Shown here one piece after another: positions 1,317 through 12,469 of a stretch of DNA of 12,547 nt; position 1 is the first letter of the stretch, and each line of letters opens with the position of its first letter. The position numbers were made by a program, and so were the translations under genes. Origin of the DNA: a virus (taxonomy: Duplodnaviria; Heunggongvirae; Uroviricota; Caudoviricetes); IMG/VR virus record IMGVR_UViG_2675903434_000005; one strand, written 5' to 3'. The notes beneath the pieces were generated by a model. That model saw only the letters and a program-made list of their open reading frames with translations. It searched no databases and was not told the origin of the DNA.

Positions 1317-1568
1317 TCAAGTAAGATGACGTCTTGGTCTTGCTGATGCCTGGCGCTCAATCCAGCGATCAATTTCTTCCAGGTTGTAAAAGCATGGACT
1401 GTTATCCCATGGCATACCGTCATGAGCGACATGCTTATATTCCCTTCCTTCCATAAACGATTTTTCCCGGGCCTTTTTTAACGTACCTTTTTTTATTCCT
1501 TTCAGCGCAATTAACTGCTCTTCGGATACCCATTTGCCGGGAGAGACAATCATGATTACTTCGCTCAT
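1317..1568 (-). CDS. Excisionase-like small DNA-binding protein (Xis)
   Basis: 83-aa ORF immediately upstream of int on the same strand, 19 bp from the int start; size and position are typical of a lambdoid xis. Identity is by position, not by a recognised motif. Confidence 0.6.
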   Translation of the reverse strand: MSEVIMIVSPGKWVSEEQLIALKGIKKGTLKKAREKSFMEGREYKHVAHDGMPWDNSPCFYNLEEIDRWIERQASARPRRHLT

Positions 1569-1640: not shown

Positions 1641-4112
1641 TTAAGAATCAGCCTGACTCGGGATCAGTTTTTGCCAGATAACTGAAACGTATTTTGCCTG
1701 GTAACGGGCGTCATCAAGTGCATTATGGCGCTCACCTTCGAATGGAATAGCCGTTCTGGCATCGAAGTCTATGGCTTTCCCCAGCTCAACGATTGTGCGT
1801 ACATCGCGATCGTTGTAGTAACGCCACGGGCAGGGGATCCCCTGCCGTTCGTATGAACGGCGCAAAATCGTGTTGTCGAAGTTGGCTCCATTTCCCCAGA
1901 CCTGAACAAAAAATTCACCGGAGTTTTCGTCGATAAATTCCCACAATTGTAACAGTGCATCATCTAACGGGATTTCATCGGTCATAATGGCAGATTGCGC
2001 TTCGCGTGATTGCTTAAGCCACCATTTAATGGTGTCCCGATCAATGACTCCGCCAGCAGTTTCCAGATCGATAGTCTTACTAAATTCCGGTCCCATATCT
2101 CCGGTTTGCGGATCGAAAAATATTGCACCTATTGAGATGATCGGGGCATCAGGATTTTTTCCCATGGTTTCAAGGTCGATCATTAGATGGTCACACGTCC
2201 TGCTGGTGGATGTGATTTCTTGATGACCGTTCACCTTAATTGAGTGATCTGCCGTCTCGCCAGTTTCATTATCGCTATCGTGATGCTGATTGCCGCCAGT
2301 GTTCTCCTTGTGTGGATGTTCAGCGCCTTCCATTTCCTCCGGATCATCTTCCTGAACTTCAATCTGATACTCTTCATCGAATGTTTCCTGGTATGTTGCG
2401 TCGCCCATTACCGCGCCACAATCAGGGCAGTTGCCGCCGCCGGTCTGACCGCAGGCGGTGCAGACTTTTTCCACTTCCTGTTGCGCCACTGATTCAGGCT
2501 GTTTCGTTTCTGGCTCGTTTTGTAACGCATTTGGGCTGTTTTGTTCCGCTTTTTGGTAGTTCCGTTCCGATTCATGCTGGTTCTGGTTCACAGAATCGCG
2601 GGTCTGGATCCCCTTAACCCATTTCGGATCATTCGGGTCACTAATCCCTTCAACAAATTCACCACGTGATGCAGCAAGCAACTTATCGGCGTCAGGCTGG
2701 ATGATATTGGCTGCCTGCATAATTTTGTTTACTTCGTCAGCGGTAACTTTTATCGGCTCTGGTTGTTCTGAATCTTCAGCGGTATCTACATTTTGCGGTA
2801 AGCCCGTGTATGTGCCATTTTTTCGGGCAAAATATTCTTCTTTTGTGATTTCAGTGGCGCCAGCAGCCAGTGCCTTATCCAGACCAGAAAGTTTGTTTGC
2901 GCGACCGTATTTTTCTCCGTCCTTATCTGCGAAGAGGAAATAGAACGGCCCCTCACGCTCTACAGATGGTTCAGCTTCCGGCGCGGTTTCATTTTTTGGG
3001 ATATCAGATACCTCAGTTTCCACTGCATCAGTTTGTGTTTCTGATGACTGGAGAACATCAACAGTGCCCAGGTCTGTTTCTTCATTCTCAAACACGCCCT
3101 TTGTCGTCAGGTATTCGCAGATATATTTGTTCAGTGCTACGGGATCTTTGTGAATGTCGATCGGACGCTCACGGACAAGGCCAAAAATAGTTTGGCGGTC
3201 GTAGCGAAGGGCATCAGGCTGTTTGCGCATTGATGCCGAGATACGCTTCCAGTCTTCGCGGTCGTTGTCGATAACTTCATTTTTTGCCCAGCGATGGATG
3301 CTGCCGTCAATGTTTCCGGCATCCACATCACCAGGCCAGAGAGCGTAGGCCAGTTCGTCATCCAGTGTTTTCCATGTCTGCTTGTATTCGCGATGAATGG
3401 CAGCAATGACCGGGCTGATTTTTCCTGTTGAATTTTCAGTGTACTGTTGATTGGCTCTGGCGCGGGCGAGATCAACAACAGACGTGTATTTTCCGGTTTC
3501 CTTGCGTTCACCTTCGCGACGTTTTTTCCAGATGCGCATCTCTGCCTGAATTTCGGGCCATTTAGCACCAGGAATACATTTATGCTTAACCCACCCAATG
3601 GCGTGCAACTTAAGCTCCGGATACATGGCGTTAACTTCTGGCATTTTCATCAACGCTTCAACGATATGTCCGTCGAATGTTGCCATGTCTTCCTGCAACA
3701 ATTCCTGTGCGCTAATAACCATATCAACGGTGATGTTTTCACATGTGTCGAACTTAACCATGACAGCGTTCTGTACTTCAGGGGCCAGCTTGTCAAAAGT
3801 GACGTTCATCGGATCGGATTCAGTCTCAACCGGGACAAAAGAAGCAGACTCCTCATCCCAGCGGTTTTCCTGCATATATTCAGCATCCCATGAATCGAGG
3901 GCAGGGCGGGGTATGCCAGGTTTATCCTCGCAGACAATAAATTTATAAGCGCAGTCCTGAGCAGCCGGATAATGTTCCAGGAATTGCCAGTGAAATTTTG
4001 CTCGAGCACGGCGTTCGTCGCCAGCTTCAATGGCTGTGGCTACAGCCACAGCGCCTTCTTCCCTTGTTGCCAGTTCGTCAGGAATAGCGGCGCAAATAAA
4101 GACTTTACTCAT
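1641..4112 (-). CDS. Exonuclease, intact YdfE-like: RecE-like N-terminal region, central CxxC-x7-CxxC zinc ribbon, C-terminal DEDDh 3'-5' exonuclease domain
   Basis: ORF track 1641..4148. Start set at ATG 4112 (MSKVFICAA), which has a GAGG Shine-Dalgarno about 10 nt upstream. C-terminal ~190 aa show DEDDh motifs: MIDLETMG (Exo I), WGNGANFD (Exo II), HNALDDARY (Exo III). The middle holds CTACGQTGGGNCPDCG and Asp/Glu-rich linkers. Occupies the position of ydfE in the Qin gene order. Confidence 0.8.
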   Translation of the reverse strand: MSKVFICAAIPDELATREEGAVAVATAIEAGDERRARAKFHWQFLEHYPAAQDCAYKFIVCEDKPGIPRPALDSWDAEYMQENRWDEESASFVPVETESDPMNVTFDKLAPEVQNAVMVKFDTCENITVDMVISAQELLQEDMATFDGHIVEALMKMPEVNAMYPELKLHAIGWVKHKCIPGAKWPEIQAEMRIWKKRREGERKETGKYTSVVDLARARANQQYTENSTGKISPVIAAIHREYKQTWKTLDDELAYALWPGDVDAGNIDGSIHRWAKNEVIDNDREDWKRISASMRKQPDALRYDRQTIFGLVRERPIDIHKDPVALNKYICEYLTTKGVFENEETDLGTVDVLQSSETQTDAVETEVSDIPKNETAPEAEPSVEREGPFYFLFADKDGEKYGRANKLSGLDKALAAGATEITKEEYFARKNGTYTGLPQNVDTAEDSEQPEPIKVTADEVNKIMQAANIIQPDADKLLAASRGEFVEGISDPNDPKWVKGIQTRDSVNQNQHESERNYQKAEQNSPNALQNEPETKQPESVAQQEVEKVCTACGQTGGGNCPDCGAVMGDATYQETFDEEYQIEVQEDDPEEMEGAEHPHKENTGGNQHHDSDNETGETADHSIKVNGHQEITSTSRTCDHLMIDLETMGKNPDAPIISIGAIFFDPQTGDMGPEFSKTIDLETAGGVIDRDTIKWWLKQSREAQSAIMTDEIPLDDALLQLWEFIDENSGEFFVQVWGNGANFDNTILRRSYERQGIPCPWRYYNDRDVRTIVELGKAIDFDARTAIPFEGERHNALDDARYQAKYVSVIWQKLIPSQADS

Positions 4113-4204
4113 TTGTTTTAACCTCATGACAGATTTAAGGATGAACAAATCCCTGCCATTGCTGGCATATAAGAATGAAACCGGATATTTATTACGGAAC
4201 TGTT

Positions 4205-4396
4205 TTAAAGACCTGCCGGGATTTCGATATTATCCTGGTGAATAACTTTATCGACCGGGTAACAGTTACCGGGAATTTTCTGTTCGGTTGCTGCAGTCAT
4301 ACACTCCTGCATTGTCCTGTGAACACTGACTGCAATATCAACTGGCTCTCCGGAAACAAGAAAAACTGTCAGAACAAGCACAAATGCTGAATTCAT
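4205..4396 (-). CDS. ydfD: YdfD-like small protein with N-terminal hydrophobic segment (63 aa)
   Basis: ATG at 4396 forms an ATGA overlap with the upstream stop, and an AGGA Shine-Dalgarno sits 8 nt upstream. N-terminus MNSAFVLVLTVFLVSG is a predicted transmembrane or signal segment. The 63-aa length and position directly downstream of dicB match Qin ydfD; assignment is by synteny and length. Confidence 0.6.
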   Translation of the reverse strand: MNSAFVLVLTVFLVSGEPVDIAVSVHRTMQECMTAATEQKIPGNCYPVDKVIHQDNIEIPAGL

Positions 4397-4581
4397 TGTG
4401 CACATCCTTTTGGCATCAGACGTAAACGAGCCAGCATTGAAACAATGCATATTTTATTTAATAGCTCCCGTTCTTGTTTTCTCTTGTTAATGGCATCTTC
4501 AGTAAATACTGGGTTACTGATAGTGACACCAATTTCAAAACAACCTTCAGACGTATTAACGTTTGGTAATAACGTTTTCAT
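4393..4581 (-). CDS. dicB: DicB-like cell-division inhibitor (62 aa)
   Basis: ATG at 4581 is preceded by a GAGGA Shine-Dalgarno at 7-nt spacing. It is 62 aa and sits directly downstream of the DicF sequence on the same strand, as in the Qin dicB operon. Confidence 0.7.
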   Translation of the reverse strand: MKTLLPNVNTSEGCFEIGVTISNPVFTEDAINKRKQERELLNKICIVSMLARLRLMPKGCAQ

Positions 4582-4750
4582 TATCGCGTCCTCAACAATG
4601 AATTTTGTGATGCAGTGCCTGGTGCCTCCAGGTGACGTTAACCAGTTAACAATTAACGCCGGATACAGAGAATCCACCCATAACACTGTTTTTGGTTTTA
4701 ACTGTTCCGCGTGCGCTCAGCCGCATTCACCACATCACAAAATTCACTTT

Positions 4751-4808
4751 AAAAAGGGCGGCAGAGCAGTCACGGAGTAAAACTGATACCGCCAAACGTC
4801 ACCAGAAA
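4751..4808 (-). ncRNA. dicF: DicF small regulatory RNA (antisense regulator of ftsZ and other mRNAs)
   Basis: Minus-strand sequence TTTCTGGTGACGTTTGGCGGTATCAGTTTTACTCCGTGACTGCTCTGCCGCCCTTTTT matches the E. coli DicF sequence as I recall it, including the 3' U-tract terminator. It lies between the ydfC-like gene and dicB, as in Qin. Confidence 0.7.
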
Positions 4809-5148
4809 ATTGATAACAGAGGGCGTTGCAGCGGGGTTGTCACTTAAGCGTATGGTCAACCTGACAACCCGGTGTCCTCAACGGGGAAGAAATAACCCCG
4901 CCATACTTACCGCCGCACCATTTCGCGGGTTGCCACAACCGGAAGCGCACGGTCGACGAAAATTTAACGACAGGCTATCTATGAACCAGCTACCTCGCCG
5001 TGCGCTTTCGCGTTATGGTCTGACTTTTCAGGGAAATATCCTTTCAGTAAACTGTCAGTGCCGGATGCTCACCCGTGTCCGGCGCACGCACTCCACCTCA
5101 CCCGTGGAGAACTCCTTAATTACCAACCTTAGCTTCGTTGGTTAGCTA

Positions 5149-5367
5149 TTAACGCGGGTATGTAATCATTCTGGCAATGCTTAATGCCGCTGCTTTTTCC
5201 AGATTGGTGATATCCTGCTCCAGAGCGGACAGATTTTCAGCCTGCTTAGCCCTGGCTTCATTGGCCCATTTCAGATCCTGCGCTGCATTAATTTTCTGGC
5301 GCATCCACTCATAAAGTTCATCATCGGTATAGTCTGGCGCGATGATGACGGGTTCTCGTTTCTGCAT
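5149..5367 (-). CDS. ydfC: YdfC-like small protein (72 aa)
   Basis: ORF track 5149..5367. GAGGAA Shine-Dalgarno about 6 nt upstream of the ATG. The 72-aa length and position upstream of dicF match Qin ydfC. Confidence 0.6.
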   Translation of the reverse strand: MQKREPVIIAPDYTDDELYEWMRQKINAAQDLKWANEARAKQAENLSALEQDITNLEKAAALSIARMITYPR

Positions 5368-5396
5368 ACTGATTCCTCGCGGTGCTGTTTCGCTTA

Positions 5397-5525
5397 TCAG
5401 CCGTTAGATTTTGCCGAACTGGAAAGCGCCTGTTTAAATTCGTTGAAGCTGTGAGCTTCTTCGCCTTCGGCAAGGCCTTCGAAGTATTCTTCGTAAGCCT
5501 TTTCCATGATTGTGTCAAAATCCAT
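5397..5525 (-). CDS. ydfB: YdfB-like small protein (42 aa), not in the ORF track because it is under 60 aa
   Basis: Translated by hand: MDFDTIMEKAYEEYFEGLAEGEEAHSFNEFKQALSSSAKSNG. AGGTGA Shine-Dalgarno upstream; its ATG lies 1 nt after the stop of the upstream gene (TGATATG). Length and position match Qin ydfB. Confidence 0.55.
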   Translation of the reverse strand: MDFDTIMEKAYEEYFEGLAEGEEAHSFNEFKQALSSSAKSNG

Positions 5526-5526
5526 A

Positions 5527-5682
5527 TCACTCACCTGAGTTTCTTTCCAGCCAGCGACGGGCACCATTTTCGGTTTTAAACGTTTTGCTTTTGGTATACG
5601 TCATTGCGGTGAAGGTGCCGTCCTGGTTTGGAAACACGCCGTACACCAGAGATTCGTTGTTGCCAAGATCGATAGTATCCAT
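5527..5682 (-). CDS. ydfA: YdfA/YdaF-like (DUF1391-type) small protein (51 aa)
   Basis: Part of ORF 5527..5763. Start chosen at ATG 5682 (MDTIDLGNNESLVYGVF...), which has a GAGG Shine-Dalgarno 5 nt upstream, giving exactly 51 aa; the longer 78-aa form has no ribosome-binding site. First gene of the leftward small-gene operon. Confidence 0.6.
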   Translation of the reverse strand: MDTIDLGNNESLVYGVFPNQDGTFTAMTYTKSKTFKTENGARRWLERNSGE

Positions 5683-5861
5683 GCTGACCTCATTTCCCCT
5701 TAACGCCGGGGTAGCGGAACAAAAACCTGCTGCATAGTTATTAAAGTTGAACCCTGCCGTCATGTTCTTACGCCTCGGGCTGGCTACTTAACCCCTGACC
5801 ACTGCCTGGTAACTCGAAGTATTGCCCTGCATTCTGTAGGATGGGGTGAGGGAATGAATGA

Positions 5862-5910
5862 AGTTTAGAAAGACGAACTTTCCAGGTCAATGTTTTTTTA
5901 TCAAAACATT
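5862..5910 (-). promoter_or_regulatory. Candidate leftward early promoter (pL-like) with adjacent operator-like palindrome
   Basis: On the minus strand: TTGACC (-35, plus coordinates 5885-5890), 17-bp spacer, TAAACT (-10, 5862-5867), about 175 nt upstream of the ydfA-like start. Abutting the -35 is a perfect palindrome AATGTTTT-N6-AAAACATT (5889-5910) with the same TGTTTT/AAAACA half-sites found next to the repressor start codon. Confidence 0.4.
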
Positions 5911-5974
5911 TTAAGCAGGCAGCTGTTAAGCCATCACCACGATGGCATACAGTTAATCAAATAGATGAGGTTGG

Positions 5975-6613
5975 TTAAATATCTTGTTGAATTTTAAAGC
6001 ATACGCCCAATATGCAAGATAGATCATCCAGCATAATTGAAGGGTAGCGAGGATTCGTGGGGACTAAAAGAATATCCGGCCCTTCTATCTCCAGTTTACG
6101 AATGACAGGTGTTGTGGTCCCTTTGGGTAAGGCAAGGACAATATTTCCTGGTTGTACGGTTCGATCGGGATCAACAAAAACTGTTGAACCATTTGGGATG
6201 GAAACTCCCCCACCAGATGTTGACATACTGTCACTCTCTAGAACAACTGCAAAGGTATTGACCGGGATTTCTCCGACAAGCTGCACACAAGAGGTTATTG
6301 AGGAATTTTTCATATAATCACTCCAGCTTGCTGCCTGCTGAAGTGATAGTAGCGGAACCGTTTTTATCGGCGGTAAAGATAGATCAAGCGAATCACCTGT
6401 ATTTAACTCTCCTCCATTAAGAAGCCAATTTTCGTTTACTTTCAATATTTTTGCCAGTGAACTTATGTAACGCGAGGACGGCGCTCCTCCACCGTTCATC
6501 CATTGACTTACGGAGCCTTTTGATGCGCCAGTGCCATTGACAAGGTCTTTGCCTTTCAGGTTTAGCGCATGCATACGTTGGGTTATGCGTTCAGATATAG
6601 TTTGCTTGCTCAT
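5975..6613 (-). CDS. CI-like prophage repressor (N-terminal HTH, C-terminal S24 LexA-type autopeptidase domain)
   Basis: ORF track 5975..6613 (212 aa). C-terminal motifs align with lambda CI: LESDSM vs VEGNSM (Ser nucleophile), VFVDPDRTVQPGNIVLA vs ILVDPEQAVEPGDFCIA, IRKL vs FKKL (Lys), LVPTNPRYPSI vs LQPLNPQYPMI. N-terminus has an HTH (GASKGSVSQWMNG). Divergent from the Cro-like gene. Confidence 0.9.
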   Translation of the reverse strand: MSKQTISERITQRMHALNLKGKDLVNGTGASKGSVSQWMNGGGAPSSRYISSLAKILKVNENWLLNGGELNTGDSLDLSLPPIKTVPLLSLQQAASWSDYMKNSSITSCVQLVGEIPVNTFAVVLESDSMSTSGGGVSIPNGSTVFVDPDRTVQPGNIVLALPKGTTTPVIRKLEIEGPDILLVPTNPRYPSIMLDDLSCILGVCFKIQQDI

Positions 6614-6704
6614 GTTTTGATTTTAAAACACAGATGGTTTTGTTTCTTGACTTTCTTTGGTTTTGATTATTAAACTTTTGACGTTCAGTTTTATGGAGCG
6701 ACTC
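6613..6704. promoter_or_regulatory. Divergent switch region (OR-like): operator repeats, rightward promoter, leaderless leftward promoter
   Basis: Palindrome TGTTTT-N6-AAAACA at 6613-6630. GTTTTG starts at 6614, 6637 and 6660, exactly 23 bp apart. Rightward TTGACT (6647-6652), 18-bp spacer, TAAACT (6671-6676). Leftward TAAAAT -10 (6620-6625) ends 6 nt before the repressor ATG, implying a leaderless transcript as for lambda cI from PRM. Confidence 0.45.
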
Positions 6705-6935
6705 ATGAAAAAATCAGAAGTATTAGGCTATTTTGGCGGAGTTGTTAAAACAGCCGCAGCTCTAGGAACGTCAAAAACCACAGTCAGCATGTGGGGGGAA
6801 GAGGTTCCGTGGAAATGGGCGTTGCTAATTCAGGCAGTCACTGCCGGGGCGCTCAAATATGAGTTACACATACCGACGGTTGTCATTCCCGGTTCTGATC
6901 ATAATCCGCCTTCTAACCAAGGGGGGGATTCATGA
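6705..6935 (+). CDS. Cro-like HTH regulator of the YdaS family (77 aa)
   Basis: Part of ORF 6657..6935. Start chosen at ATG 6705 (MKKSEVLGYFGG...), with GGAG 6 nt upstream. HTH region VKTAAALGTSKTTVSMW. First rightward gene, divergent from the repressor. Confidence 0.75.
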   Translation: MKKSEVLGYFGGVVKTAAALGTSKTTVSMWGEEVPWKWALLIQAVTAGALKYELHIPTVVIPGSDHNPPSNQGGDS

Positions 6936-7357
6936 AAATCAAGCATGAACACATCCGCATGGCGATGAATGCCTGGGCGCATCCGGACGGCGAAAAAGTA
7001 CCGGCTGCGAAAATTACCAAAGCGTATTTCGAGCTGGGAATGACGTTCCCGGAACTGTATGACGACAGCCATCCGGAAGCCCTGGCTCGCAATACCCAGA
7101 AAATTTTCCGCTGGGTAGAGAAAGACACCCCTGATGCAGTTGAAAAAATTCAGGCGTTGTTACCAGCGATCGAAAAGGCAATGCCACCTTTGCTGGTGGC
7201 CAGAATGCGCAGCCACAGTTCAGCTTATTTTCGGGAGCTGGTGGAGACGCGGGAGCGACTGGTGAGAGACGCTGATGATTTTGTCGCAGTGGCAATCGCC
7301 GGTTTCAATCAGATGAACCGTGGTGGCCCGGCAGGAAATGCTGTGGCAGTACATTGA
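6932..7357 (+). CDS. ydaT: YdaT-like protein (reported functional analogue of lambda CII in cryptic prophages)
   Basis: ORF track 6932..7357 (141 aa). ATGA start/stop overlap with the upstream Cro-like gene. N-terminus MKIKHEHIRMAMN and the ~140-aa length match my recollection of Rac/CP-933P YdaT. Confidence 0.65.
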   Translation: MKIKHEHIRMAMNAWAHPDGEKVPAAKITKAYFELGMTFPELYDDSHPEALARNTQKIFRWVEKDTPDAVEKIQALLPAIEKAMPPLLVARMRSHSSAYFRELVETRERLVRDADDFVAVAIAGFNQMNRGGPAGNAVAVH

Positions 7358-10567: not shown

Positions 10568-10686
10568 GACTGCGGGTGCTTGAGGCTATCTGTCTCAGGC
10601 ATGAACACCAAAAGGCAGATAGAGAAAAGCCCCAGTTAACATTACGCGTCCTGCAAGACGCTTAACATTAATCTGAGGCCATATCT

Positions 10687-10746
10687 ATGCGACACATAGA
10701 GATTAGCCTCTTACGGACCGAAAGGTCAAGGAGAAGCAGGCTATGA
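10687..10746 (+). CDS. Short leader ORF translationally coupled to hok (mok-like, 19 codons)
   Basis: ATG 10687 with GAGG upstream; its TGA stop (10744-10746) overlaps the hok ATG (10743-10745) as ATGA. Confidence 0.35.
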   Translation: MRHIEISLLRTERSRRSRL

Positions 10747-10898
10747 AGCAGCAAAAGGCGATGTTAATCGCCCTGATCGTCATCTGTTTAACCGTCATAG
10801 TGACGGCACTGGTAACGAGGAAAGACCTCTGCGAGGTACGAATCCGAACCGGCCAGACGGAGGTCGCTGTCTTCACAGCTTACGAACCTGAGGAGTAA
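10743..10898 (+). CDS. hokD: Hok/Gef-family type I toxin (51 aa), RelF/HokD-like
   Basis: Translated by hand: MKQQKAMLIALIVICLTVIVTALVTRKDLCEVRIRTGQTEVAVFTAYEPEE, which has the Hok/Gef signature (single TM helix, TRKxLCE, conserved periplasmic tail). AAGGAG Shine-Dalgarno upstream. Position before the Rem-like and YdfU-like genes matches Qin hokD. Confidence 0.8.
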   Translation: MKQQKAMLIALIVICLTVIVTALVTRKDLCEVRIRTGQTEVAVFTAYEPEE

Positions 10899-11345: not shown

Positions 11346-12395
11346 GTGCGGGTATTACTTCGACCTGTTCTGGTACCGGAACTCGGGGTGGTGATCGTTA
11401 AGCCGGGCCGTGAATCCATGCCGGTATTCCACAATACCCGGGTACTGGTGGAGCCGGAACCGAAAAGCATGCGTAATCTGCCGTCCGGGGTCGTTCCTGC
11501 CGTTCGCCAGCCGCTGGTGGAAGACAAAACATTGCTGCCGTTTTTCAGTAACGCACGGGTGATTCGTGCTGCTGGTGGTGCTGGTGCATTGTCTGACTGG
11601 CTGTTGCGCCATATTAAATCCTGCCAGTGGCCACACGGCGATTATCACCACAGTGAAACCGTCATTCACCGTTATGGTACCGGCGCAATGGTGTTGTGCT
11701 GGCACTGCGACAACCAGCTGCGTGACCAGACATCCGAATCACTCGAGCAACTTGCTCATCAAAACCTGTCAGCATGGATGATTGACGTCATCGGTCACGC
11801 AATAAGCGGTACGCAGGAGCGTGAATTATCTCTGGCTGAATTATCCTGGTGGGCGGTCCGAAATCAGGTGGCGGATGCGCTACCTGAAGCGGTATTACGT
11901 CGCTCGCTGGGATTACCAGCGGAAAAAATCCGCTCAATGTACCGCGAAAGCGACATCGTACCGGGAGAGCAGACCGCCACCAGCATATTGAAACAGCGCA
12001 CAAAAAATCTTGCACTGTTGCCTCACGCCCACCAGGAACAACACCCACTACAGGAAAGGACGGTGGTAAGCATCACCGTTGATCCTGAGTCTCCGGAATC
12101 TTTCATGAAGCTACCTAAACGTCGCCGCTGGGTTAAGGAGAAATACACTCGCTGGGTGAAGACACAGCCGTGTGCTTGCTGCGGTATGCCAGCCGACGAT
12201 CCGCATCATCTGATTGGTCACGGGCAGGGCGGAATGGGAACCAAAGCACATGATCTTTTTGTGTTGCCTTTATGCAGAAAGCATCACGACGAACTGCATA
12301 CGGATACCGTGGCATTTGAAGAGAAGTATGGCTCCCAACTGGAGCTGATTTTTCGATTTATCGATCACGCGCTGGCAATTGGTGTGCTGGCCTAA
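11346..12395 (+). CDS. YdfU-like (DUF968-type) protein, 349 aa, with C-terminal HNH-like zinc-finger motif
   Basis: ORF track 11346..12395. GTG start preceded by GGAGG at 6-nt spacing. C-terminus CACCGMPADDPHHLIGHG...LCRKHHDELH resembles an HNH nuclease fold. Length and position immediately upstream of Q match Qin ydfU. Confidence 0.8.
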   Translation: MRVLLRPVLVPELGVVIVKPGRESMPVFHNTRVLVEPEPKSMRNLPSGVVPAVRQPLVEDKTLLPFFSNARVIRAAGGAGALSDWLLRHIKSCQWPHGDYHHSETVIHRYGTGAMVLCWHCDNQLRDQTSESLEQLAHQNLSAWMIDVIGHAISGTQERELSLAELSWWAVRNQVADALPEAVLRRSLGLPAEKIRSMYRESDIVPGEQTATSILKQRTKNLALLPHAHQEQHPLQERTVVSITVDPESPESFMKLPKRRRWVKEKYTRWVKTQPCACCGMPADDPHHLIGHGQGGMGTKAHDLFVLPLCRKHHDELHTDTVAFEEKYGSQLELIFRFIDHALAIGVLA

Positions 12396-12459: not shown

Positions 12460-12469
12460 NNNNNNNNNN
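12460..12469. other. Run of 10 ambiguous bases (assembly gap or mask)
   Basis: Literal n x 10 in the sequence. Confidence 0.99.

Follow-up and report, generated by a model that had tools for sequence, protein, structure and literature searches.

The open reading frame at 1641..4112 (minus strand) of a 12,547-nt stretch of viral DNA, called the window here at its full length, encodes the intact exonuclease of the early left operon of Qin-type lambdoid phages. Our favored explanation, held with moderate confidence, is that this protein acts as an annealase-independent exonuclease on DNA 3' ends during lytic growth. The gene itself is no discovery. Nor is the protein unusual: it belongs to a catalogued family, with PHROG and Pfam families of its own, that is present in most E. 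coli genomes, and thousands of genomes already carry annotated near-identical proteins. The features on which the argument rests are as follows.

1641..4112, minus strand: complete exonuclease coding sequence, 823 aa plus stop (stop codon 1641-1643), from the ORF list and translation
4122..4125, minus strand: Shine-Dalgarno-like GAGG seen in the sequence, 9 nt 5' of the ATG at 4112
3513..4112, minus strand: 'YdfE-type' N-terminal module, aa 1-200 (AF2 pLDDT mostly 80-90; dN/dS 0.05-0.14)
3381..3512, minus strand: basic linker, predicted disordered, aa 201-244 (pLDDT <50 for aa 201-238; composition)
3078..3380, minus strand: conserved helical core, aa 245-345 (BLASTP and PHROG cross-hits; pLDDT ~81-89; dN/dS 0.10-0.14)
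2193..3077, minus strand: central, mostly acidic region, aa 346-640, homologous to RecE ~350-591 (BLASTP; dN/dS 0.23-0.73)
2793..2957, minus strand: small folded insert (beta-beta-alpha-beta-alpha), aa ~386-440 (AF2 pLDDT 76-85)
2595..2669, minus strand: conserved motif SRGEFVEGISDPNDPKWVKGIQTRD, aa 482-506, nearly identical in RecE (BLASTP)
2418..2462, minus strand: CxxC-x7-CxxC zinc-ribbon-like knuckle, aa 551-565 (motif search; same motif in RecE)
1674..2189, minus strand: DEDDh 3'-5' exonuclease domain (Rv2179c/DexA family), aa 642-813 (PF16473, E=1.1e-66)
2166-2180, minus strand: Exo I, with D646 and E648
1875-1898, minus strand: Exo II, with D746
1707-1727, minus strand: Exo III, with H796 and D801
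1317..1568, minus strand: excisionase (xis), directly 3' of the exonuclease gene with no gene between (PF06806; annotation of near-identical loci)
2-1297: integrase (int), beyond xis (annotation of near-identical loci)
4205..4807, minus strand: ydfD (DUF1482), dicB and the DicF sRNA, the upstream genes of the exonuclease operon (Pfam, Rfam, PMC10448788)
4756-4807, minus strand: DicF sRNA (Rfam)

The ORF is real, its length lying far beyond chance, and the intact 823-aa frame proposed in the initial annotation was borne out: it begins with ATG behind a good ribosome-binding site and is matched end to end by the PHROG 2082 profile (positions 1-822 of 823). An in-frame TTG at 4148 is an alternative start that would extend the product to 835 aa. 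At the DNA level the gene is 99.9% identical to RefSeq WP_001537739.1, annotated as 'exonuclease'. An internal start at M644, from which a stand-alone nuclease domain could be made, was considered and rejected; the sole AGGA lies 13 nt upstream. Scanning for promoters and terminators around the gene returned sites no more numerous than in shuffled sequence.

PF16473 matched the C terminus with 224 bits (cut-off 27), the match spanning positions 2-177 of the 177-position profile. The five catalytic residues (D646, E648, D746, H796, and D801) were all invariant in a three-way alignment that included T4 DexA and a stand-alone homolog from a phage. Pfam and the alignment thus upheld the multi-domain nuclease with a C-terminal DEDDh 3'-5' exonuclease and three Exo motifs described earlier from the sequence, and neither a non-nuclease fold nor a substituted catalytic residue was found. 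A Pfam search of the protein detected no PD-(D/E)XK domain, PF16473 occupying that position, and the dN/dS of the DEDDh domain was 0.11-0.17. The only solved structure matched by sequence search was PDB 8KEL, an 'Exodeoxyribonuclease' (E=2e-7), which we take to be T4 DexA on the basis of the T4 dexA alignment and the DexA structure paper. The closest stand-alone homolog of the domain, with 60% identity, is encoded by Stx phage 1720a-02; it was considered as a candidate for the E. coli enzyme EcD and rejected as not being EcD.

T4 DexA (exonuclease A; PDB 8KEL/8KEN) and the window's domain both belong to PF16473, their DEDDh residues all align, and D90 of DexA is conserved. The 227-aa DexA of T4, a lytic phage, stands alone, whereas here the domain ends an 823-aa protein. 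In a stretch of low identity, the counterpart of DexA W152 is Y766, also an aromatic residue, and opposite D169 stands A780, two to four residues from D782 and D784. Both DexA and EcD have been experimentally shown to be 3'-5' DNA exonucleases (PMC12153337). Counting against the favored explanation, exoribonuclease is the activity described for Rv2179c, the founding member of the family, and '3'-5' exoribonuclease' is the NCBI name of many copies, so that RNA may instead be the substrate; identity to DexA is only 27%.

The region preceding the nuclease domain is shared with RecE (exodeoxyribonuclease VIII of the Rac prophage). The two proteins have a common core and acidic center (aa 245-625 versus RecE 278-591), including the DPNDPKW motif and the CxxC-x7-CxxC knuckle. 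BLASTP against the genuine Rac RecE aligned only aa 262-625 with RecE 278-591, at 39% identity overall (E=5e-63) and near-identity over aa ~463-625. Likewise, the NCBIfam RecE equivalog NF007259 matched only aa 246-625, scoring 281 bits, which is below its cut-off of 1269. Unlike RecE, which carries a 5'-3' PD-(D/E)XK/DUF3799 nuclease (PF12684 at residues 615-850), the window protein ends in a 3'-5' DEDDh domain, its N terminus gives no Pfam match to PF06630, and its locus has no adjacent recT. The helical core is common to RecE (278-350), to forms that join a RecE-type N terminus to DEDDh, and to the phrog_2489 family, as seen in BLASTP against RecE and the E. coli L005 protein and in PHROG cross-hits.

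Within the central region, AF2 pLDDT was below 50 except at aa ~386-440. For this small insert neither RecE nor the L005-type protein offers a clear equivalent; in both it gave a poor, gapped alignment to unrelated acidic sequence. A second AF2 model, of aa 346-823 and so including the nuclease domain, had a mean pLDDT of 37, with the homologs in its alignment all at least 71% identical. The long Asp/Glu-rich linkers recorded in the initial annotation were recovered, with 28% D/E and a single K/R in aa 346-385 and 29% D/E and a net charge of -17 in aa 571-640. Motif SRGEFVEGISDPNDPKWVKGIQTRD occurs in some, not all, DEDDh long forms and phrog_2489-type proteins. The knuckle reads C551-x2-C554-x7-C562-x2-C565, and all four Cys were present in 123 of 171 related proteins; single-Cys losses (C-to-Y and C-to-S) occur, and more distant long forms have no knuckle. 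A central zinc ribbon had been placed at about 2400-2460; the motif does lie there, at 2418-2462, but as part of the module shared with RecE and without strict conservation. Across the protein, every folded module had a dN/dS of 0.05-0.17, compared with 0.3-0.7 for the linkers. All folded modules are thus under strong purifying selection.

One earlier claim was not borne out by sequence, namely that the N-terminal region is RecE-like. No match was found between aa 1-244 and PF06630, the Pfam family of the RecE N terminus, and the similarity to RecE is central (aa ~245-625). An AF2 model of aa 1-350 (pLDDT 79) predicted an alpha/beta sub-domain at aa ~1-100 and a helical sub-domain at aa ~105-200 for the YdfE-type module, which in close homologs carries precomputed Pfam assignments to PF27430/PF27432. 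Foldseek of this model against BFVD returned nothing at E<=1e-3. An hhalign comparison of YdfE-type with RecE-type N termini was borderline (probability 53%, E=1.4e-4, 144 columns). Judged by sequence, aa 1-244 form a separate module, different from the RecE N terminus.

The gene order in the window (repressor, ydfABC, DicF, dicB, ydfD, exonuclease, xis, int) is that of a Qin-type lambdoid early left operon, and the exonuclease occupies the same slot by xis and int as RecE does in Rac. The window's repressor is a LexA-like S24 protein by Pfam; in K-12 the dicB operon is repressed by DicA (PMC10448788, PMC11430063). The order exonuclease-xis-int was found in 6/6 intact long-form loci, which comprise four Escherichia-type copies (one on a contig labeled Veillonella) and those of Pluralibacter and Scandinavium; six species show this order. 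Searches with RecT by tblastn were negative for the window, the complete Tritos phage genome, and L005, and Pfam scans of the window's other ORFs gave no match to an annealase family. The annotation of the Tritos genome lists no annealase and no Gam, and an adjacent annealase gene was absent from every related long-form locus examined. These searches agree with the earlier observation that the window has no RecT-like annealase and that the locus is not a canonical RecET pair. As no annealase gene is adjacent in any lineage examined, the system does not belong with the two-component recombinases RecET and Red.

Of 5426 complete E. coli genomes, 3537 (~65%) had a full-length copy, annotated as 'exonuclease', and intact copies are carried by the viable phages HannyBb, Tritos, PhiR42_1, mEp460, and Evi (plaque-forming or inducible); the protein also occurs in prophages of Shiga-toxin-producing E. 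coli. In K-12-lineage genomes only the first ~255 codons of ydfE are kept, abutting an IS2 fragment, so that the window gene is, as had been proposed, the intact counterpart of the truncated K-12 ydfE. Since pseudogene copies exist in K-12 (IS2 insertion), PPompW (frameshift), and Shigella flexneri (fragmented), the gene is dispensable for the host. In the literature searched, ydfE is mentioned only as a pseudogene, no paper names PF16473, and no functional, biochemical, or genetic test of this protein or any long form was found.

Comparison of the sequences indicates that the gene is a mosaic, in which a shared core and center are combined with two N-terminal modules and three nuclease domains. 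The architecture of RecE is PF06630, the shared center, and PDDEXK, with recT adjacent. L005 and many diverged clusters combine PF06630 with DEDDh, without an annealase; among these long forms are the 'exodeoxyribonuclease VIII' of phage vB_EcoS-640R1 and proteins of Pluralibacter and Scandinavium prophages. They have the same center, DEDDh domain, and gene order as the window, and the L005 form matches it over the last ~370 aa (98% DNA identity), but they carry a genuine RecE-type N terminus where the window protein has a YdfE-type one. The phrog_2489 'exonuclease' family (Klebsiella and Salmonella prophages; gp07 of Pectobacterium phage ZF40) shares the YdfE-type N terminus and core, with 25-38% identity where aligned. 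Its C-terminal domain differs (phrog_7838), being a third, nuclease-like type with no Pfam or PDB sequence match, and its next gene encodes Sipho_Gp157/'Mu Gam-like'. Alignment depth was limited, as two of three homolog searches retrieved nothing beyond near-identical proteins from E. coli, a good many of which were fragments at contig ends.

Under the favored explanation, a DNA 3'-end exonuclease of lytic growth, the two-metal DEDDh 3'-to-5' domain of the T4 DexA/Rv2179c family makes up the C terminus and is tethered to a scaffold by the long acidic linker, for which mostly disorder is predicted. The core and center of this scaffold (aa ~245-640) are common to RecE, and the N-terminal YdfE-type unit is separate. 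Because the gene sits in a repressor-controlled, dicB-type operon, the exonuclease is expected to be made only upon prophage induction or infection. It would then strip nucleotides from free DNA 3' ends, alone. The scaffold appears interchangeable among 5'-3' PD-(D/E)XK (RecE), 3'-5' DEDDh, and the third nuclease type, and presumably gives targeting or oligomerization, with the C-terminal domain setting the chemistry. The most likely role would be DexA-like, with linear DNA ends of the host, of competitors, or of phage intermediates being trimmed or degraded in lytic growth. Recombination, anti-defense, and nucleic-acid processing had all been named earlier as candidate roles, a range that the evidence narrows without settling.

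It is less probable, though still worth weighing, that the protein is an exclusion or defense nuclease of the HREX/EcD type, which would selectively degrade the hydroxymethyl-cytosine DNA of superinfecting T-even phages and so shield the lysogen or induced cell. EcD, from the same species and the same Pfam family, degraded 5hmC-containing T4 DNA and, produced from a plasmid, shielded cells from T4, and DexA homologs are reported absent from K-12 (PMC12153337), which fits the truncation of ydfE. The family is also extremely abundant in E. coli, and DicB, another product of this operon, reportedly gives protection against phage (PMC6832061). The resemblance weakens at several points, however. 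EcD (HAK9828821.1), compared here by its published description and cloning primers, is short and stand-alone, its construct beginning with MIDTET at the Exo I motif, and it has no 640-aa scaffold. None of the retrieved homologs starts with MIDTET, and one 228-aa representative has it internally. EcD has no equivalent of D90, the tetramer-forming residue whose loss leaves it dimer-only, whereas the window protein keeps it as D718, invariant in the three-way alignment. The reported 5hmC-recognition residues W152 and D169 appear, in the low-identity alignment described above, as Y766 and A780, and the operon that holds the gene is a repressed, lytic one and not lysogen-expressed. PADLOC-DB v2 gave no match to the full-length protein, and for the isolated domain only a generic CRISPR-associated DEDDh model (3.9e-7), with no specific one.

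An exonuclease for recombination, equivalent to RecE or lambda Exo and working with a host pathway (RecA/RecFOR) or an unlinked annealase, seems rather unlikely. The gene does sit beside xis where Rac has recET; the corresponding lambda genes are exo-bet-gam. The protein has about 380 aa of scaffold in common with RecE, near-identical in the part noted above, genes for DUF968/HNH and RusA lie in the right arm of exonuclease-bearing phages, and full-length RecE is reported to raise linear-linear recombination relative to the nuclease domain alone (PMC11611040). The polarity is opposite, however, and a 3'-5' exonuclease removes the 3' tail needed by annealases and RecA. An annealase was moreover absent from the window, the complete phage genome, and the related loci examined, whereas the true RecE architecture, in the one example examined, had recT adjacent.

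An Rv2179c-like exoribonuclease trimming RNA 3' ends, for example those of the DicF-containing polycistronic transcript or of host RNAs, is improbable. The Pfam and NCBI names '3'-5' exoribonuclease' would fit it, as would the processing of DicF from the same operon transcript. Yet K-12 makes DicF without the DEDDh domain, by means of RNase III and RNase E (PMC10448788), the two characterized relatives, from phage and E. coli, are DNases, and the scaffold is common to an enzyme of dsDNA ends. A decaying prophage remnant without current function, to which the pseudogene copies might point, is very improbable given the low dN/dS across the folded modules and the intact copies in plaque-forming or inducible phages and ~65% of complete genomes.

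Beyond the favored role as a lytic DNA 3'-end exonuclease, a broader idea may be entertained tentatively. The RecE-type scaffold (core and acidic center) could be a nuclease-agnostic platform for delivery or oligomerization that temperate phages load with nucleases of opposite polarity, and the DEDDh-loaded, annealase-free version could be a DNA-end system in its own right, serving a separate purpose, and not a degenerate RecE. That purpose might be, e.g., counter-defense, the exclusion of competing phages, or the neutralization of host end-processing, in a version found in about two-thirds of E. coli genomes and broken in K-12. No function has been assigned to the ~600 N-terminal residues of RecE, yet linear-linear recombination is better with the full-length enzyme (PMC11611040). 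Because the same core and center are strongly selected together with a nuclease of opposite polarity and without an annealase, whatever the scaffold does should require neither RecT nor 5'-3' resection, and natural domain swaps provide a series for probing it. As K-12 has only the truncated ydfE, any phenotype would be invisible in standard laboratory strains. The long forms are obvious candidates for an anti-T4 test, given the T4 protection reported for their stand-alone relative.

The window protein is a DexA/Rv2179c-family exonuclease rather than a RecE. The initial annotation had described an intact 823-aa protein with a RecE-like N-terminal region, a zinc motif, Asp/Glu-rich linkers, and a C-terminal DEDDh exonuclease carrying all Exo motifs. 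That description was largely right, with one correction to the domain map: the RecE-like region is central instead of N-terminal. The ORF matched PHROG 2082 ('exonuclease') end to end (positions 1-822 of the 823-position profile). In the sequence the ATG is preceded by GAGG at a distance of 9 nt, and starting instead at an in-frame TTG (4148) would lengthen the protein by 12 residues.

Features of the window
1641-4112, minus strand: exonuclease coding sequence, ATG at 4112, 823 aa
2418-2462, minus strand: CxxC-x7-CxxC motif (C551-x2-C554-x7-C562-x2-C565), from a motif search
4756-4807, minus strand: DicF small RNA (Rfam, 76.7 bits), upstream of dicB
5975-6613, minus strand: LexA-like S24 repressor, 212 aa, HTH and S24-peptidase domains
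10574-10898, plus strand: complete hok/sok module, sok RNA (106.7 bits) and a 51-aa Hok-like ORF at 10743-10898

Pfam family PF16473 ('Rv2179c-like 3'-5' exoribonuclease domain') matched aa 642-813 (E=1.1e-66), which assigns the C-terminus to a nuclease family. D646, E648, D746, H796, and D801 were invariant, with no catalytic substitution, in an alignment of the window protein, T4 DexA, and a stand-alone Stx-phage homologue, and the DEDDh active site is thus intact. The only structures matched by sequence were 8KEL and 8KEN, both 227-aa 'Exodeoxyribonuclease' entries, which we presume to be T4 DexA judging by the T4 dexA alignment and the DexA structure paper. An exhaustive HMMER search with the domain recovered 12,079 cluster representatives, mostly stand-alone proteins of 180-200 aa.

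Against RecE from the genuine Rac recE-recT locus, BLASTP aligned only aa 262-625 (RecE 278-591; 39% identity overall), with identity close to complete between aa ~463 and 625, a stretch that holds the zinc knuckle and acidic tail. The NCBI RecE equivalog model matched only aa 246-625, scoring 281 bits where the cut-off is 1269. RecE has a PF06630 N-terminus and a PD-(D/E)XK-like DUF3799 nuclease domain, whereas the window protein has neither. Its aa 1-244 form a separate module, the same part that persists as YdfE in K-12, for which close homologues have precomputed assignments to Pfam PF27430 and PF27432. Compared profile to profile with RecE-type N-termini, the module gave a borderline result for remote homology (probability 53%, E=1.4e-4).

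The window protein is one tile of a mosaic family, in which several architectures have parts in common with it.

Architectures sharing parts with the window protein
RecE, Rac prophage: PF06630, common center, PD-(D/E)XK; recT adjacent
RecE-type N-terminus with DEDDh, phage vB_EcoS-640R1, 813 aa: PF06630, common center, same DEDDh; int-xis-exo-ydfD-dicB, no RecT
Window protein, 823 aa: YdfE-type N-terminus, common center, DEDDh; int-xis-exo-ydfD-dicB context, no RecT
phrog_2489, Klebsiella and Salmonella prophages and Pectobacterium ZF40 gp07: YdfE-type N-terminus, core, another nuclease-like domain; next gene Sipho_Gp157 / 'Mu Gam-like'
575-aa form, many E. coli genomes: core, center, and DEDDh, without the N-terminal module

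All eight sampled long-form representatives combined PF06630 with PF16473, their DEDDh domains being 56-97% identical to that of the window, and this architecture also occurs in Pluralibacter and Scandinavium prophages. Many complete E. coli genomes list the 575-aa form (P0376 and about 80 similar proteins) as a complete '3'-5' exoribonuclease'. Stenotrophomonas phage vB_SmeS_BUCT708 encodes a 710-aa protein (4974-7106) that shares 88-92% identity with proteins encoded in Klebsiella genomes, which is odd given its recorded host.

All four knuckle cysteines were complete in 123 of the 171 retrieved proteins bearing the central DPNDPKW motif. With C-to-Y and C-to-S variants in existence and no knuckle at all in the more distant long forms, the zinc ribbon, though real, is neither universal nor tightly constrained. 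Variants with one ligand lost, CTACGQTGGGNYPDC and STACGQSGGGNCPDC, were seen in P0020, P0408, and other proteins, the STACGQSGGGNCPDC form in many of the 575-aa copies that complete genomes carry; such natural variants suggest that zinc binding is under relaxed constraint. Two stretches are strongly acidic by composition, aa 346-385 (28% D/E) and aa 571-640 (29% D/E, net charge -17). A short motif, LAAxRGE[FY]V[ED]GISDPxDPKW (2595-2669, aa 482-506), recurs in RecE, P0149, P0206, P0216, P0217, and P0224. It accompanies all three C-terminal nuclease types but is absent from other members of each, and in this patchiness it acts like a mobile sub-module or docking motif.

Nei-Gojobori dN/dS among four diverged intact copies was 0.05-0.14 in the N-terminal sub-domains, 0.10-0.14 in the conserved core, 0.11-0.17 in the DEDDh domain where divergence sufficed for measurement, 0.3-0.4 in the linkers, and 0.38-0.73 in the zinc knuckle and acidic stretch. 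Within single pairs dS ranged along the gene from about 0.05 to 1.1, pointing to intragenic recombination. Four parts emerged when aa 1-350 were modeled with AF2 (38-sequence alignment; pLDDT 79, pTM 0.37): aa ~1-100 are an alpha/beta sub-domain and aa ~105-200 a helical one, aa 201-238 are disordered, and aa 245-343 make up a helical core.

The window is an arm of a Qin-type lambdoid prophage, with the minus-strand order S24 repressor, ydfA/ydfB/ydfC homologues, DicF, dicB, ydfD, exonuclease, xis, and int. Its immunity region (5975-6935) is unlike that of K-12 Qin, and with a LexA-like repressor and a P22-Cro-type regulator in place of DicA and DicC the arm looks SOS-inducible; the remainder of the dicB operon is Qin-like despite this difference. 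In the literature the dicBF operon (ydfABC-dicF-dicB-ydfD-ydfE) is DicA-repressed, YdfD is described as its sole other characterized product beside DicF and DicB, and ydfE has been called a pseudogene (PMC10448788, PMC11430063). As first noted, ydfE is truncated in K-12 Qin: K-12-lineage genomes retain only the first ~255 codons, abutting an IS2 fragment, with an annotation of incomplete exonuclease. The best genome match (99.9% identity, annotated 'exonuclease') adjoins rspB, the Qin attachment region. Of 5426 complete E. coli genomes, 3537 hold full-length copies (at least 80% coverage), at a median of 2 and a maximum of 10 matching places per genome; such copies also stand in 17 phage records, among them HannyBb, Tritos, PhiR42_1, mEp460, and Evi. 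This is an abundant prophage protein, already catalogued in databases.

The reported lack of a RecT-like annealase gene held: RecT gave no tblastn match in the window, in the 46-kb Tritos genome, or in L005, a locus combining a RecE-type N-terminus with DEDDh; the Tritos annotation includes neither annealase nor Gam; and no annealase family turned up when the window's other ORFs were scanned with Pfam, the scanned right-arm ORFs matching P22 Cro, YdaT, DUF977, a weak zinc ribbon, DUF7167, and DUF968/HNH. In all six intact loci (four Escherichia-type, one of them on a Veillonella-labeled contig, plus Pluralibacter and Scandinavium), xis and int directly follow the long-form gene. A Serratia microhaemolytica prophage (L023, 5563-7570) has a stand-alone 189-aa DEDDh gene in the same slot directly upstream of xis-int, preceded by genes for a DUF2303 protein and a 193-aa ORF.

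The closest characterized relatives are DNases. Together with the operon position, the scaffold in common with RecE, and the missing annealase, this leads us to lean modestly toward an exonuclease that would be expressed at prophage induction or infection and act on DNA 3' ends without an annealase, its scaffold perhaps giving targeting or oligomerization. RecE's enigmatic scaffold is here paired with a nuclease of the opposite polarity, with no RecT beside it. An EcD-like defensive role is unlikely, although EcD, a stand-alone E. coli homologue, reportedly degrades 5hmC-containing T4 DNA and protects cells against T4 (PMC12153337): in the window protein D718 (DexA D90) is retained, DexA W152 aligns with Y and D169 with A in a stretch of low identity, the gene sits in a repressed operon, and PADLOC gave no defense-system-specific match. 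RecE-like recombination seems slightly less likely still, given the opposite polarity and missing annealase. An RNase role is improbable, as DicF is made in K-12 without the DEDDh domain (PMC10448788), and decay, at odds with the dN/dS values, is very improbable.

Individual copies have become pseudogenes, by an annotated deletion-frameshift in PPompW_EH1846 and by splitting into several short ORFs in Shigella flexneri (L026). On the Veillonella parvula-labeled MAG contig JAGZPX010000007.1 lies an E. coli-type Qin-like arm; its DEDDh domain shares 99% identity with that of the window, and the contig's label probably reflects a binning error. Ten consecutive Ns (12460-12469) lie a short way downstream of the DUF968/HNH gene (11346-12395) and have the look of an assembly gap or masked stretch.
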